This document shows positions 31,701 to 34,717 of a stretch of 64,000 nucleotides of DNA, piece after piece; the stretch's first letter is position 1, and each line of letters opens with the position of its first letter. Both the position numbers and the translations under genes were made by a program. The notes below the pieces were generated by a model. It was given only the letters and a program-made list of their open reading frames with translations. It was not told the DNA's origin and did not search any database. Where the stretch lies: the sequence record SRR22947727_495; one strand, written 5' to 3'.

Positions 31701-32164
31701 TGTTGTTGACGACATTGACCACGGTGCTCGGCCTGTCCCCTTTGCTTTACGAAACCTCGTCACAAGCGCAGTTTCTCAAGCCAACGGTGATAACCTTAGT
31801 CTATGGGCTTGGGTTTGGGGTGATCTTAGTATTGATCGTCGTGCCAGCCTTGATGGCGATGCAAGCGGATGTGGGCGCGCAGGTGGCGAGCGTCAAACGG
31901 GCCCTGCGCGGCCTCTGGCGTGGCCGCGGACCGCGCTTGCCCATTGTTGCAGCGCTGATCAGCCTGACCGCCCTTTTCGCCGCGACCCTTGGGGCGGTGA
32001 TCGTGAGTGGAGGGGTGCCGCAGTTTTGGATGGGGTTGCCATTGGCGGCCCATCTGTCGCCCTTGCCATTTGGGCTTGCGCTATTTTTGAGCGGCTCAGC
32101 GCTCGTTGTGTTGTTGCTTTACGCGGTGTCAGCCGTGATCTTTGCGCGGAATTTGCGGCGCTAG
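28772..32164 (+). CDS. RND efflux permease (AcrB/AcrD/AcrF family)
   Basis: GIVVDDAIVVGE, NDSIV, RLRPVLLTTLTT. Confidence 0.93.
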   Translation: MSVIRTATGGILSYMTRHRTAANLFLLIMLVAGAVSFPQMRAQFFPDVIIDRVTVSVRWDGAGPEDVDRAIVQVVEPALLGVEGVNSTSATSSEGSARITMEFEPGWDMARGTDDAQIAVDSVANQFPDDADDPKVTRGVWRDRVTDVVISGPVGVAQLALFADEFVTRLFAAGVTRTTIRGVAAGSTIVEVDSLSLIRHDVSMAQIASAIAEEAEADPAGDVAGSARIRTGIAKRSARDIRQIVLRSNADGSSLTVGDVARVTEEGVDRDRAYFVGAASAISIRIDRSDQGDAIEIQEQVQTTAAAMMESLPPDVNVELIRTRSEAISARLAMLLENGLQGLGLVLLLLFLFLNVRTAFWVAAGIPAAMAAALALMYLSGLTINMISLFALIITLGIVVDDAIVVGEHADFRARVLGESPVVAAENAAKRMFTPVFSATLTTVIAFFGLVAIGGRFGDLIADIPFTVIVVLIASLAECFLVLPHHMAHSISVGSRIRWYDMPSHFMNYLLDQFKFYLFRPFIRLVIWARYPVFAAVVVALASQAVLFINGDVQWRFFNAPERGSVTGNFAMAPGATREDSLEQMRAFQTAVEAVGAQYEEKYGRNPVDFSMAEIGGNTGRGLAGADTKDADQLGSIAVELIDADLRPYSSFAFVADLQDAVIRHPRVETISFRGWRSGPGGDALDVQFSGADARRLKAASEALQTALARYPEVSAVEDTLSYDKEELVLELTPQGQSLGLTIDTLGRVLRNRLNGIEAASFPDGPRSATIRVELPAGELTADFTDRMLIRTPNGGYVPLADIVTVQQRTGFSTVRRENGIQVISVTGDISEDDPARAQAIVAELEETVLPRIAEETQVAFTLAGLAEQEDDFRNDATRGLILTLAGIFMTLAWIFSSWTRPLVVMAIIPFGLIGTIYGHWWYDIPLSLFSVVGLIGMVGIIINDSIVLVTTIDEYSKERGLFPAIVDGVTDRLRPVLLTTLTTVLGLSPLLYETSSQAQFLKPTVITLVYGLGFGVILVLIVVPALMAMQADVGAQVASVKRALRGLWRGRGPRLPIVAALISLTALFAATLGAVIVSGGVPQFWMGLPLAAHLSPLPFGLALFLSGSALVVLLLYAVSAVIFARNLRR

Positions 32165-32955
32165 GCGCCCAGGCAGCCACGATATTCGGTGGCTCCGTCG
32201 GGCGCAAATAGCGTGGTTGTCACCCCGTCGCGCCCGATGGCCATGGGCTGACCCGTGGGGGTCATGATTTGGGCGGTGACATTCAACCGCCCATCGCGCA
32301 GCTCAAGCTTGGGCGTTTTGACCCAAAGACGCGGGTTGTCCAGTTCAATGGCCGCATTGTCAAAGGCGCGATCGGGGGATGGCAAAACAATCTTTAGCTC
32401 CATGCCATCGTCTGCTGCTGAAAAAGCGCAGGTGATCTGACCCGCGCCGGGTTTTGGCACAGCGGCGCGTGCGGCTTTAATCAGAAGGTCAACAGGCGCC
32501 TGTGCGGATAATTGCGCGGACAGATCAAGCGTAACAGGGATGCACAGCTCCCGGCACACACCGATCTCAATACGCCCGATCAAGGTGATGTCTGCAGCGC
32601 GGTCCACGGAGAGTTGCACCGGAAAAATGATCTGCTCTTCATATCCGATGTTGCGGCTGCTCCCGAGCCACGAAATTTCTGGCGTTGGGTAAAAAACCTC
32701 GAAGGCCTGAACACCCACAGATTGAGAAAAATCAAAGCGCGGCGGGATGCCACTGTCTCCCGGCTGGCGCCAATAGGTTTTCCACCCCGGCGCCATATCG
32801 AGTTGAAGCGCCGCCATATGGATACCATCCTCAGTGCGCCATCCTGGCCGCAATTCGGCCTGCAAAATATCGTCCAGATCCTGTGCGAGGGCGGCAGGGG
32901 CGAGGCAAAAAGCGCAGAGGAGGAATGTGGTGATGCGGTGCACAGTGTGTTTCAT
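32161..32955 (-). CDS. Exported protein with a DsbD N-terminal-like domain
   Basis: Signal peptide, PGWKTYWRQPGDSGIPP, CRELCIP; start ATG 32955. Confidence 0.85.
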   Translation of the reverse strand: MKHTVHRITTFLLCAFCLAPAALAQDLDDILQAELRPGWRTEDGIHMAALQLDMAPGWKTYWRQPGDSGIPPRFDFSQSVGVQAFEVFYPTPEISWLGSSRNIGYEEQIIFPVQLSVDRAADITLIGRIEIGVCRELCIPVTLDLSAQLSAQAPVDLLIKAARAAVPKPGAGQITCAFSAADDGMELKIVLPSPDRAFDNAAIELDNPRLWVKTPKLELRDGRLNVTAQIMTPTGQPMAIGRDGVTTTLFAPDGATEYRGCLGA

Positions 32956-33085
32956 GGGGTTCCTTCTAACGTATTTACGCTGAAATACGAACTCACTTTT
33001 TATTGAGCAAGCCCGTCTTCGCAAGGGGTGGCTTGGGCGGGCGGCCGGCACAATTTGGCGCAGGCCACTGCGGCGTGGAAAAATC

Positions 33086-33110
33086 CGGCCTTATGTAGCA
33101 AACGCACCAA
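33086..33110 (+). repeat. Left terminal inverted repeat
   Basis: CGGCCTTATGTAGCAAACGCACCAA. Confidence 0.88.
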
Positions 33111-33112
33111 AG

Positions 33113-33286
33113 GGCCAGCATCACCACGTGTCACCACAGCACCTTGCACAATACGCAAACCGCGCTGCACGGTTAGAAGATAACCGGCGCGTTGATAATG
33201 GTGGTCTGGTGCACAAGTTGGTTGTCAATTCAATGGAAGCCCCAGTGTCACGCAACTGGAAAGGGTATTGGCAGCGGGCGGCTTGA
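33113..33286 (+). pseudogene. C-terminal 57-aa remnant of an IS1595-type transposase
   Basis: GQHHHVSPQHLAQYANRAARLEDNRRVDNG...PVSRNWKGYWQRAA*; no start codon at its 5' end; abuts the left TIR. Confidence 0.8.
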
Positions 33287-33360
33287 ACCACAATTACTTG
33301 TGTGCACACAACGGGAACGCCGCTAGACTCAGGGTTGTGACACATGGTAAACGAAAAATT

Positions 33361-33391
33361 GAGGCGGTCAGGTCACAACACCTGCCGCCTC
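33361..33391. terminator. Hairpin inside the element (minus-strand terminator-like, or leader structure)
   Basis: GAGGCGG-T-CAGGT, loop CACAAC, ACCTG-CCGCCTC; A-run on the left gives a U-tract on the minus strand. Confidence 0.5.
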
Positions 33392-33405
33392 TATTTGCAA
33401 CCTAG

Positions 33406-33669
33406 AGCATCCTTTGCGGCGCTTGTCGCGTACCGATTGAAGGCCCCGCTAATCCGAAATCTGATGACATGTTTACCTGCCCTGAGTGCGGGCGAAGTGA
33501 CACACTCAAACACGTCATCGATTCCGCCACGGCTTACGTCACAGAACTCGCGCAACTTAGACTCCAAGAATCCATGAGGAAGGCTGCGAGGGGTAGCAAG
33601 TTAATGAAGTTCGAGGGCAAGCCCATCCCAAAGAAGACTCATCGGTTTATTACTGATCATAAGTTTTAA
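33406..33669 (+). pseudogene. Zinc-ribbon passenger ORF, probably 5'-truncated
   Basis: Frame open from 33406: SILCGACRVPIEGPANPKSDDMFTCPECG...; the first CxxC lies upstream of the first ATG (33469); in-frame TAG at 33403. Confidence 0.55.
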
Positions 33670-33688
33670 ATCCTCTACTGCTGACCCT

Positions 33689-34024
33689 TCATTGGGTCAG
33701 CATCCACAAACACCCATCATGGGCAACAGCCTCAATTTCCCGCAGCTTACGCAAACACTGATAAGCACGGTTATAAGCTGACTTGTCGGTCATATCGGGA
33801 TGCGTCTTGTGAATATGATCTGCAATCTGTCGTGTGGTCTTTGGCCCTGTTTCCAGCATAGCTAGCACCATGCGCCGTGTATGCCCGCGCCTGAGTCGTC
33901 TTAACTGGCGTACATCGGGTATCCGCAACTCACGGATCATAAGCACTGCACGGGCAAGATTGCCCCGTATTCCGTCATCGCGTTCTAAAGCCAGTAGTGC
34001 GTTGTTTAAGTTTCTATCCTGCAT
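33689..34024 (-). CDS. Basic winged-HTH-like passenger protein
   Basis: VLAMLETGPKTTRQIADHI...AYQCLRKL...GCLWML resembles a wHTH; reads inward from the right TIR. Confidence 0.7.
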   Translation of the reverse strand: MQDRNLNNALLALERDDGIRGNLARAVLMIRELRIPDVRQLRRLRRGHTRRMVLAMLETGPKTTRQIADHIHKTHPDMTDKSAYNRAYQCLRKLREIEAVAHDGCLWMLTQ

Positions 34025-34066
34025 GTCTGCATTATATCAAAGCTGCTGGTTTATGCGTCTGAATTG

Positions 34067-34091
34067 TTGGTGCATTTGCCACCTAAGGCCG
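34067..34091 (-). repeat. Right terminal inverted repeat
   Basis: Reverse complement is CGGCCTTAGGTGGCAAATGCACCAA. Confidence 0.88.
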
Positions 34092-34147
34092 AAAAAATCT
34101 CAGTGACAGCACTTGTTGTTTTGATCTTTCCTATTCATGTTCTTGGC

Positions 34148-34717
34148 ATGACTGACGCGCAGACGACTCTTGTTGGAAAACTCTTGGTGGCCATGCCGGG
34201 CATGGGTGATCCGCGATTTGAGCATTCGGTCGTCTATATCAGCGCCCATTCCGAGGATGGCGCCATGGGGCTCATTGTGAATAAGGCCAATGCGGCCTTA
34301 GATCTAAAAGCGCTTCTTGGGCATCTCGATATCCCCATCGGCGCTTTTACCCCGGAGGTTGCTGTGCATTTTGGCGGACCGGTCGAACCTTCGCGCGGAT
34401 TTTTACTGCATACGGCAGATTATGTTGGCGATCCTGATACCTTGCGGATTGACGACCGCTTTGCGGTGACGGCCACGGTCGATGCGATCAAAGATTTGTC
34501 GCGGGGTTTGGGACCAAAGACCAGTTTGTTGGCGCTGGGCTATGCGGGCTGGGCGGCCGGGCAGCTGGAGGCGGAAATTCGGGCCAATGGTTGGTTGATT
34601 TGTGAGGCTGAGTTTGACTTGGTTTTCAGCCCGGACAATGGTGCCAAATGGGCGGCGGCTCTGGCCTCAATCGGGGTCGATCCAACCCTATTGTCGGGGC
34701 AAGCGGGCCGGGCCTGA
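34148..34717 (+). CDS. YqgE/AlgH family protein
   Basis: LLVAMPGMGDPRF, GAMGLIVN, FGGPVE, GYAGWAAGQLE, GQAGRA end. Confidence 0.93.
   Translation: MTDAQTTLVGKLLVAMPGMGDPRFEHSVVYISAHSEDGAMGLIVNKANAALDLKALLGHLDIPIGAFTPEVAVHFGGPVEPSRGFLLHTADYVGDPDTLRIDDRFAVTATVDAIKDLSRGLGPKTSLLALGYAGWAAGQLEAEIRANGWLICEAEFDLVFSPDNGAKWAAALASIGVDPTLLSGQAGRA

Follow-up and report, generated by a model that had tools for sequence, protein, structure and literature searches.

The window analyzed here is a 64,000-nucleotide stretch of DNA from a marine Rhodobacterales bacterium. About midway along it, between two housekeeping genes that encode a DsbD_N-domain protein and an AlgH/DUF179 (yqgE-like) protein, lies a 1,006-bp segment (positions 33086 to 34091) that is bounded by two 25-bp inverted repeats and flanked by two copies of an 8-bp sequence. 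Within these boundaries are the 3′ remnant of a transposase gene fused to the left end, a spacer, a truncated zinc-ribbon open reading frame (ORF) and, on the opposite strand, an intact ORF for a small winged-helix (wHTH) protein (Table 1). The segment is very probably a transposase-less, nonautonomous relic of an IS1595-family element resembling ISRssp2.

Table 1. Features of the relic and its neighbors (positions in the window)
Feature	Positions	Strand	Remarks
DsbD_N-domain protein gene (left neighbor)	32164..32955	-	Pfam PF11412, 7.7e-15; start 122 nt from the insertion
Left target-duplication copy, GAAAAATC	33078..33085		Read directly; identical to the single copy in the G001 empty site
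Left inverted repeat (IRL), 25 bp, CGGCCTTATGTAGCAAACGCACCAA	33086..33110	+	Identical to one of two common variants of the family terminus
Transposase stub	33111..33286	+	Last 57 codons plus stop, fused directly to IRL; zinc ribbon and DDE domain missing
Spacer after the transposase stop	33287..33403		Collinear with positions 202-318 of the 1,467-bp variant A
Truncated C4 zinc-ribbon cargo ORF	33404..33669	+	The 461-bp deletion took the start and the first 6 codons
wHTH ORF, 111 aa, intact	33689..34024	-	Reads inward from IRR; putative conserved accessory gene of this IS group
Extended -10-like motif, TGATATAAT	34031..34039	-	Ends 6 nt upstream of the wHTH ATG; read directly
Right inverted repeat (IRR), 25 bp, reverse complement CGGCCTTAGGTGGCAAATGCACCAA	34067..34091	-	3 changes from the family terminus
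Right target-duplication copy, AAAAAATC	34092..34099		G>A change; the left copy and the empty site have G
AlgH/DUF179 (yqgE-like) gene (right neighbor)	34148..34717	+	Pfam PF02622, 3e-44; ATG 48 nt from the insertion

The two inverted repeats match at 22 of 25 positions, with mismatches at positions 9, 12, and 18, and the flanking direct repeat formed by GAAAAATC and AAAAAATC matches at 7 of 8; the preliminary description of this locus had reported the same ends and repeat, and its letters were confirmed at the positions it quoted. A repeat scan with a seed of 9 missed the pair of ends because their longest exact run is 8. A degenerate two-arm pattern, allowing up to 3 mismatches, had exactly two matches in the 64-kb window, namely, the two ends, with 0 expected from 100 dinucleotide-preserving shuffles; even when up to 7 mismatches were allowed, the window contained no copies beyond these two ends. 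The left end recurs at 0 mismatches in some relatives from other genera (for example, L016, L024, L040, and L054). The three changes in the right end, which are identical in the contigs of variant A (a longer allele of the same insertion), all fall on conserved positions: among the ends of the relatives, 20 of 20 have T at position 9, 20 of 20 have A at position 12, and 19 of 20 have C at position 18. The duplicated sequence GAAAAATC fits the target preference of the family, S-A-W-A-T-W-T-S, which was derived from 165 ends.

A precise empty site is carried by close relatives and by most of the natural population. The nearest genome (G001), with flanks 98% identical to the window, has a single copy of GAAAAATC and lacks the element. 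In 4 of 4 marine sequencing runs, a contig with a depth of 57 to 168 skips from position 33081 to position 34096, that is, exactly 1,014 bases (1,006 + 8), and a second empty haplotype is present at a depth of 20 to 54; the element itself has a depth of 6.6 to 18.4, the filled allele being the minority in all four runs. The preliminary description had anticipated an empty site with one (G/A)AAAAATC copy in relatives, and such a site was indeed found, both in G001 and as the abundant allele in the four public runs. In another genome of the same genus (G198), the two neighbor genes lie ∼1.1 kb closer together. The 10 nucleotides to the left of the duplication differ between the window and G001, and a link between these differences and the insertion was considered and rejected, given that the main empty-site contig has the bases of the window.

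The window element is a defective derivative rather than an autonomous member of its group because only the last 57 codons of the transposase gene remain. In a tblastn search, the window matched only residues 261 to 321 of a 321-residue transposase (E value of 3e-23), and the stub DNA (33113-33286) is 66 to 76% identical to the 3′ ends of the transposase genes of relatives. The stub protein retrieved 476 proteins at an E value of ≤0.001, the best of them 84% identical; the best 120 of these 476 all carry PF12762, and the full-length, 320-aa proteins among them also carry PF12760. The deletion that removed the rest of the gene stops within 1 to 2 nt of the inner edge of the left end, a position that is unexpected for a random in situ deletion.

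Metagenome contigs place the element at the same site in 9 of 9 cases, and every contig that includes the left end shows the same transposase-deletion junction. Four of these contigs represent variant A, which is 1,467 bp long (461 bp longer than the window copy), and the other five represent variant B, with different cargo that includes an ImmA/IrrE-type peptidase; the right end of variant B is missing from every contig. Because both variants share the transposase-deletion junction of the window copy and variant A contains an additional 461 bp, the window copy has been deleted twice. The second junction (33403|33404) lies at an ACC(T/C) microhomology. The zinc-ribbon ORF that it truncates is complete (93 aa) in variant A, has a homolog in the element of genome G251, and yields only subthreshold zinc-ribbon matches in Pfam; in the window, the largest remaining ATG-initiated ORF (33469-33669) encodes 66 aa and keeps only the second CxxC pair. 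The TAG codon that precedes “SILCGAC” in this frame was considered as a nonsense mutation, a reading rejected on the evidence of variant A, which shows that the 461-bp deletion junction lies there. Thus, the internal deletion proposed in the preliminary description is borne out by the 57 codons fused to the left end, and its term “cargo cassette” needs the qualification that the cargo of the window copy has been cut by the second deletion. The 1,006-bp form itself was not seen in the contigs of the four runs or in the 9 metagenome contigs, which, as contigs, drop rare variants. The parts shared by variants A and B differ by 4 to 6%, compared with an identity of ≥99.2% for the flanks, a short patch excepted. 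At presumably neutral positions, the two variants differ at 25 of 480 sites, 2.6-fold above the synonymous sites of the flanks (7 of 348), an excess that a single recent insertion alone does not explain.

Matches to the element were found in 25 of 301 genomes of the same family. All 10 related elements that were fetched possess both ends and a perfect 8-bp duplication, as do 24 of the 30 same-contig pairs of ends detected in a scan of the collection, where the elements range from 202 to 4,633 bp. The same ends occur in many genera of Alphaproteobacteria, bounding elements of 0.2 to 4.6 kb. The 320-aa transposase of the relatives matches the Pfam families DDE_Tnp_IS1595 (1.6e-36) and Zn_ribbon_IS1595 (1.1e-13) as well as NCBIfam NF033547 (143 bits against a cutoff of 75). 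The ends that the preliminary description called IS1595 type are therefore correctly named, bounding as they do elements that encode a protein with both of these domains. All the checks proposed in that description turned out in favor of its reading. The literature (PMC8101967) lists, as features of the IS1595 family, duplications of 8 bp, a zinc finger at the N terminus, and DDE_Tnp_IS1595. The cargo within the family is diverse, including KilA-N, SocA/Panacea, HicB-like, and ImmA/IrrE proteins and DUF4258 together with an XRE-type protein.

The nearest named relative is ISRssp2, which appears in the NCBI product name [quoted passage not shown] and is not mentioned in the literature searched. 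The 56-aa stub of the window is 80% identical to the C terminus of this 320-aa protein, which in turn shares 84% identity across 320 residues with the transposase of G251, a relative whose element has the same 25-bp ends. On a Roseovarius sp. 217 contig, the same ends lie 4,633 bp apart and are flanked by a perfect 8-bp duplication, GAAATGTC. Compared with ISRssp2, the window copy has a mutated right end and lacks ∼82% of the transposase gene and most of the cargo; in DNA sequence, the closest sampled elements are only ∼71 to 76% identical to the window copy.

The ISNha5 group of the IS1595 family was reportedly described by Siguier, Gagnevin, and Chandler in 2009. The features of the relic and its relatives fit this group, which makes it a candidate assignment based on general features of the subgroup. 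The ends begin with CGGCCTT, which would fit the CGGnnTT quoted for the ISNha5 subgroup in the preliminary description; this motif was not found in the literature searched. Likenesses to the group are the 8-bp duplication and the passenger genes, among them one for a DNA-binding, regulator-like protein; conversely, the full-length relatives, at 1.8 to 4.6 kb, overlap only in part with the 3.45 to 7.9 kb range of the group. ISNha5 itself carries a transcription regulator as a passenger, according to a review (PMC11891212). Searches of plasmids identified IS1595-family transposases with up to 59% identity among the best 40 of 329 records, along with 7 weak matches to the end; no Nitrobacter record and no record named ISNha5 was found among those best 40 of 329 or among the 7 end matches. 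The relic also resembles miniature inverted-repeat elements (MITEs) in possessing two terminal inverted repeats and a target duplication without a transposase, and it has sister forms as short as 202 bp. However, MITEs are defined by multiple dispersed copies, whereas one site is known here, and the relic is longer than typical MITEs and still contains an ORF.

Taken together with the empty sites, these comparisons point to the following history. An element evidently inserted into GAAAAATC between the DsbD_N-domain gene and algH/yqgE, with duplication of 8 bp. The insertion was presumably catalyzed by a DDE transposase with an N-terminal zinc ribbon, which would have bound the ends, and 8-bp staggered cuts would have been made at the A/T-rich, palindrome-like target S-A-W-A-T-W-T-S. 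A first deletion, common to all alleles seen, took out everything between the left end and approximately codon 264 of the 320-codon transposase gene, and a second, of 461 bp and seen only in the window, removed a small cargo ORF along with the start of the zinc-ribbon ORF. The lack of a transposase, the failure to detect a helper in the window or in G001, and the mutations at conserved positions of the right end lead us to infer that the relic is now immobile; the present-day mobility of the window copy is accordingly doubtful.

The preliminary description had instead envisaged a MITE-like element that is still active and could be moved if the cell supplied a related transposase of the IS1595 family from another locus. 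The two ends and the duplication can still be recognized, and short forms with the same ends and perfect duplications exist in other genomes (L083, 202 bp; L104, 1,304 bp; L103, 1,312 bp; L026, 1,261 bp; and L027, 1,548 bp). The stop of the first deletion at the inner edge of the left end would also be expected if only forms with complete ends survive, and the deleted form could have been selected for mobility before it landed at this site. Such activity nevertheless appears unlikely. All 9 metagenome contigs and all 4 runs place the element at one chromosomal site, with no other insertion site found in either, and the junction between the stub and the left end is absent from 165 other distinct ends at other loci. 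Neither the 64-kb window nor G001, the nearest genome, yielded a match to a transposase. Even the best transposases from any source share no more than 84% identity with the stub, and all 3 changes in the right end affect conserved positions. Furthermore, transposase-less forms need not imply mobilization in trans because the genomes that hold two of them, L026 and L027, show no transposase either.

The contrast between variants A and B raises the question of whether they descend from one insertion or whether two elements, both already deprived of the transposase, inserted independently into one hot-spot target. The two variants carry entirely different cargo in the interval from the transposase stub to the wHTH gene, the parts that they share have diverged well beyond the flanks, and insertion hot spots are plausible given the marked target preference of the family. 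Independent insertions are nonetheless improbable: the left-end junction and the left copy of the duplication are identical in A and B, and the deleted form would have to be mobile, yet no second site is known. The right copy of the duplication offers no comparison, since the right end of variant B is in no contig, and the same data are explained by an old insertion with flanks homogenized by recombination or by cargo swapped through recombination with another element. A broader version of the latter, in which the slot between the 3′ end of the transposase gene and the wHTH gene is a general cargo-exchange site, where a stationary relic swaps its cargo by homologous recombination, is itself rather unlikely. 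If true, it would explain the A and B alleles, and the slot would ferry small toxin-antitoxin or defense-like modules among marine Alphaproteobacteria, those seen being Panacea and HicB antitoxins, XRE/DUF4258, ImmA/IrrE, and KilA-N; the locus would then be a miniature, stationary “defense-island” platform derived from an IS.

The wHTH ORF forms one cluster with 35 related ORFs, and an alignment of the family comprises 26 sequences. In Pfam, it matches only HTH_5, at 1.5e-3 and below the cutoff, and a profile search of solved structures returned only weak winged-helix matches (E values of at least 0.19). An AlphaFold2 model (mean pLDDT of 79.7, >90 over residues ∼50 to 110) predicts three helices and a beta hairpin, and its best Foldseek neighbors are wHTH proteins of the MarR, ArsR, PadR, and Fur types (best E value of 0.018). 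The gene is also present in the smallest transposase-bearing elements (1,826 to 1,844 bp) and looks like a core gene of the IS group rather than a passenger, presumably the element's own DNA-binding accessory or regulatory gene. The motif TGATATAAT may be the promoter of a leaderless or near-leaderless wHTH mRNA; a promoter and terminator scan of positions 32900 to 34250 called 0 sites, and the motif went uncalled because it has no -35 match. Between the window and variant B, pN/pS is 0.69 for the wHTH ORF (only 4 synonymous and 9 nonsynonymous differences) and 1.45 for the stub, compared with 0.09 to 0.22 for the flanking genes. With so few differences behind the value of 0.69, some constraint on the wHTH ORF is still compatible with it.

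An intact ORF with TGATATAAT just upstream, in an element that lies within the shared promoter region of its neighbors, 48 nt upstream of algH and 122 nt upstream of the divergent gene, might suggest that the relic has been domesticated, with either the winged-helix protein or a promoter that reads outward from the right end regulating algH/yqgE or the DsbD_N-domain gene. Such a role is highly unlikely. The filled allele is the minority in 4 of 4 runs, at a depth far below that of the main empty allele; the ORF, intact in both the window copy and variant A, has a frameshifted C terminus in variant B, where the nearly invariant tryptophan is lost; and both the pN/pS of 0.69 and the absence of a called promoter speak against it. 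The element is present in contigs from RNA libraries as well, but these do not show transcription because the ratio of element depth to flank depth equals that of the DNA runs. The wHTH gene in this lineage is probably drifting rather than serving the host. Finally, the reading of the segment as conserved intergenic DNA with a chance or structural palindrome, which only its small size and missing transposase recommend, is refuted by the precise empty sites (in G001 and the four runs) and by the identical ends that bound transposase-bearing elements in many genera, the end pattern being expected 0 times by chance.

For annotation, 1 kb of “hypothetical” intergenic DNA is thus explained as the stub of a transposase pseudogene, a zinc-ribbon ORF that has been truncated, and a winged-helix gene carried by the IS. 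These findings leave the current understanding of transposition unchanged. They mark a site at which near-identical strains of an abundant marine Rhodobacterales lineage differ in the presence or absence of the element, and they provide a natural series of decay at one locus, from the empty site through variants B and A to the doubly deleted form in the window. They also document a widespread, barely described subgroup of IS1595 with near-invariant 25-bp ends across several alphaproteobacterial orders, the traits of which are the target S-A-W-A-T-W-T-S, a winged-helix gene conserved beside one end, and variable, often toxin-antitoxin-like cargo.

The 1006-bp stretch from position 33086 to 34091 is a defective derivative of an ISRssp2-like element of the IS1595 family. 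Its ends, with the right one reverse complemented, are identical at 22 of 25 positions (mismatches at 9, 12, and 18), and the inverted ends and the 8-mers flanking them (Table) were confirmed in sequence and position as the preliminary description had given them. A two-arm pattern matched the window twice, both times at these ends, against an expectation of 0 from 100 shuffles; no third copy of the end was found in the window, even when up to 7 mismatches were allowed.

When 301 genomes of the same family were searched at the DNA level, the element was matched in 25, with the 25-bp end at 93 to 100% identity and element positions 28 to 201 at 66 to 76%; positions 315 to 633 were matched, at 71%, in two genomes. 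All 10 loci that were fetched carried inverted end pairs and a perfect 8-bp duplication (elements of 1261 to 3696 bp). In the relatives, positions 28 to 201 are the 3' end of an ∼320-codon gene, the product of which matches DDE_Tnp_IS1595 (1.6e-36) and Zn_ribbon_IS1595 (1.1e-13) and scores 143 bits with the NCBIfam IS1595 model (cutoff, 75). The window retains only residues 261 to 321 of this transposase (tblastn E value, 3e-23), as a stub fused to the left end, and tblastn found no match beyond the stub in the 64 kb. A database search with the 56-aa stub matched 476 proteins; PF12762 was present in all of the best 120, and PF12760 as well in the full-length 320-aa proteins among these. Among the best 120 is an [quoted passage not shown] which shares 84% identity with the transposase of a relative (G251). 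Thus, the initial assignment to a transposase-less, internally deleted IS1595-type element is borne out by ends that match those of transposase-bearing relatives and by the residual transposase segment. Ends of the ISNha5 subgroup follow a CGGnnTT rule, and the subgroup has its own size range; the literature searched yielded neither point, nor any mention of ISRssp2. The features of the element fit the ISNha5 group, a putative subgroup assignment. For IS1595-family members, 8-bp duplications, a zinc-finger N terminus, and a DDE_Tnp_IS1595 domain are described (PMC8101967); ISNha5 is presented as a “transporter IS” with a transcription regulator aboard (PMC11891212).

The copy consists of the left end, stub, spacer, zinc-ribbon ORF, 111-aa ORF, and right end, in that order. 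The 111-aa protein aligned end to end with 25 relatives and had no match above the Pfam and NCBIfam cutoffs. Its AlphaFold2 model (mean pLDDT, 79.7; >90 for residues ∼50 to 110) confidently predicts a C-terminal winged helix, and the nearest solved folds in Foldseek were MarR, ArsR, PadR, and Fur-type winged-helix proteins, all with E values of 0.001 or more. A TGATATAAT motif lies 6 nt upstream of the ATG, and a promoter scan called nothing there; the sequence hints at a leaderless transcript, with a promoter that would overlap the inverted end. In relatives, “GTGAATCC.ATAAT” is conserved at this position.

Table. Features of the element, its neighbors, and compared loci
Feature	Location	Strand	Remark
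DsbD_N-domain gene	32164-32955	minus	neighbor; Pfam 7.7e-15
Hypervariable patch	33018-33077		60 nt, directly left of insertion
Left flanking 8-mer	33078-33085		GAAAAATC
Left end	33086-33110		25 bp
Transposase stub	33111-33286		last 57 codons
Spacer after stub			117 nt
Zinc-ribbon ORF without start	33404-33669		longest ATG ORF, 66 aa
Winged-helix ORF	33689-34024	minus	111 aa
TGATATAAT motif	34031-34039	minus
Right end	34067-34091		25 bp
Right flanking 8-mer	34092-34099		AAAAAATC
AlgH/DUF179 gene	34148-34717	plus	neighbor; Pfam 3e-44
Variant B 134-aa ORF	L183:408-812	minus	no family match
Variant B Peptidase_M78/IrrE-domain (ImmA/IrrE) protein	L183:805-1344	minus	2.1e-20
Distant transposase frame	G198:C27:718-1476		one internal TAA
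Toxin-antitoxin-like or phage-like cargo	L027:953-1773; L029:1116-1628; L053:649-1224; L054:1270-1983; L057:2440-2799; L101:732-1523
Conserved ∼280-aa ORF	L030:1260-2102; L029:3287-4147; L031:1833-2669; L026:961-1920
202-bp element	L083:2000-2201		Rhodomicrobium MAG contig

The proposed insertion is further supported by empty sites. In G001, the nearest genome compared, the flanks are 98% identical to those of the window with only 12 bases between them; base by base, a single GAAAAATC is followed by the right flank as in the window. In G198, a more diverged genome of the same genus, the DsbD_N and AlgH genes lie ∼1.1 kb nearer each other. The region was also compared in contigs of four public runs, two from DNA and two from RNA libraries. 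Because a contig in each run joins position 33081 to 34096 (depth, 57 to 168), skipping exactly 1014 bases (1006 + 8), a precise empty site exists between flanks of the same haplotype as in the window. Each run also contains another empty haplotype, like that of G001 (depth, 20 to 54). With a depth of 6.6 to 18.4 for the element itself, the filled allele is apparently the less common one, although contig depths give only an approximate picture.

Relatives of the 111-aa protein show 99, 93, 93, and 87% identity, and one of them, a hypothetical protein, bears the source name Planktomarina temperata. All nine metagenome contigs encoding close relatives carry them at the window's chromosomal site, and every such contig that has the left end shows the same left duplication and end/stub junction. 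Two further filled alleles, variants A and B, are represented. Variant A, seen in four contigs, measures 1467 bp; it matches the window element, with >99% identity in the common parts, and has a further 461 bp. This extra DNA includes an ORF of 116 to 139 aa with a sub-threshold GIY-YIG match (0.0035) and supplies six initial codons, with which the zinc-ribbon ORF is complete at 93 aa. Microhomology, ACC(T/C), is seen at the junction of the 461-bp deletion. Variant A is present in all four runs, among the contigs of which the 1006-bp form was not found. In variant B (five contigs), unrelated cargo of ∼1.1 kb separates the stub (94% identical to that of the window) from the winged-helix gene (96%), the C terminus of which is frameshifted, with a nearly invariant tryptophan gone. 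The end/stub junction is the same in A and B contigs, and therefore the transposase deletion is old and common to the alleles. The 461-bp deletion is later and so far seen in the window only.

A single old insertion underlying A, B, and the window allele is the preferred explanation: the cargo would have been altered afterward by recombination or deletion, and the alleles would later have moved between lineages via homologous recombination of the flanks. The rival is that A and B are independent insertions of two already-deleted elements. Between the window and variant B, 25 of 480 positions differ in the element parts and 7 of ∼348 synonymous sites in the flanks, a divergence roughly 2.6-fold higher in the element. 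Mismatches between A and B are distributed evenly over the stub, from position 40 onward, and no recombination breakpoint was seen within it. Synonymous and nonsynonymous differences between the window and variant B number 2 and 10 in the stub (pN/pS, 1.45) and 4 and 9 in the winged-helix ORF (0.69); for the flanking genes, pS is 0.015 to 0.026 and the ratio is 0.09 to 0.22. In the hypervariable patch, outside which all alleles share at least 99.2% identity over the 1.5-kb flank, one haplotype at 33018 to 33047 is common to the window and variant A and another to variant B and G001. At 33067 to 33077, CTGCGGCGTG is found in the window, A, B, and the main empty-site contig, and CCAGGGTACA in G001 and the second empty-site contig. 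The patch may represent mosaic recombination tracts.

Present-day mobilization of the element, which the preliminary description had proposed for a transposase supplied in trans, is improbable. The transposase deletion does stop precisely at the left end's inner edge, and short forms that have perfect duplications are known from other genomes (202, 1261, 1304, 1312, and 1548 bp). However, the element is known from one site only, no transposase was found in the window or in G001, and identity to the stub does not exceed 84% among the best 120 of the 476 matches. In both the window and variant A, the right end is altered where the ends of relatives have T (20/20), A (20/20), and C (19/20). Nor was a transposase found in the genomes of the 1261- and 1548-bp forms, although G028 is just 85% complete. 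The IS1595-family transposase frame in G198 is distant, with 32% identity to the query, and is not plausible as a helper.

A scan of species-representative genomes for the end core matched at least 143 stretches. Among the matches listed, most stretches with the core are in Rhodobacterales, and other hosts are Hyphomicrobiales, Caulobacterales/Maricaulales, Rhodomicrobium, and Magnetovibrio. The 25-bp end was also seen on single MAG contigs labeled Halioglobus (Gammaproteobacteria; L105) and Blastopirellula (Planctomycetota; L165), reflecting either transfer outside Alphaproteobacteria or mis-binned contigs. Same-contig end pairs among the matches listed have identical outer 8-mers in 24 of 30 cases (elements of 202 to 4633 bp). 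The duplication is mismatched in six (L041/L042, L092, L113/L114, L136/L137, L045, and L074), with flanking 8-mers that are reverse complements of each other in one; such pairs suggest recombination between copies, or decay. The target consensus from 165 distinct ends is S-A-W-A-T-W-T-S (by position: G70/C54, A104, T63/A66, A117, T119, T76/A51, T108, and C78/G43), with which the window's GAAAAATC agrees.

Most elements have a small ORF beginning 25 to 45 nt inside one end, with the N terminus “MQDKTI.NALLALRKQII...” or, in a second subtype, “MEHTI.GLIKKRGE...”; 35 small ORFs formed one cluster, and the transposase cluster numbered 32. The smallest transposase-bearing elements (1826 and 1844 bp) contain only these two genes, convergently oriented. 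Related elements often carry toxin-antitoxin-like or phage-like cargo. Pfam matches among 60 representative ORFs, a few of them probably chromosomal or another IS's, were KilA-N, SocA/Panacea (three), a HicB-like antitoxin, DUF6471, and a ParA-like ATPase; most of the 60 had no Pfam family. A domain scan of relatives added DUF4258 with an XRE-type HTH protein, and KilA-N. Several elements carry a conserved ∼280-aa ORF beside the transposase-side end, with no Pfam or NCBIfam match; in L026 (1261 bp), it is the sole gene between the ends. A true MITE of the group is found in L083: its 202-bp element amounts to scarcely more than the pair of 25-bp ends and is flanked by a perfect GATTTTTT duplication.

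The feature is real and its original interpretation correct, and it is an ordinary further example of a known element type. Modest interest is added by the natural decay series at a single locus and by an IS group, poorly described so far, in which a winged-helix gene is conserved and the cargo is toxin-antitoxin-like.
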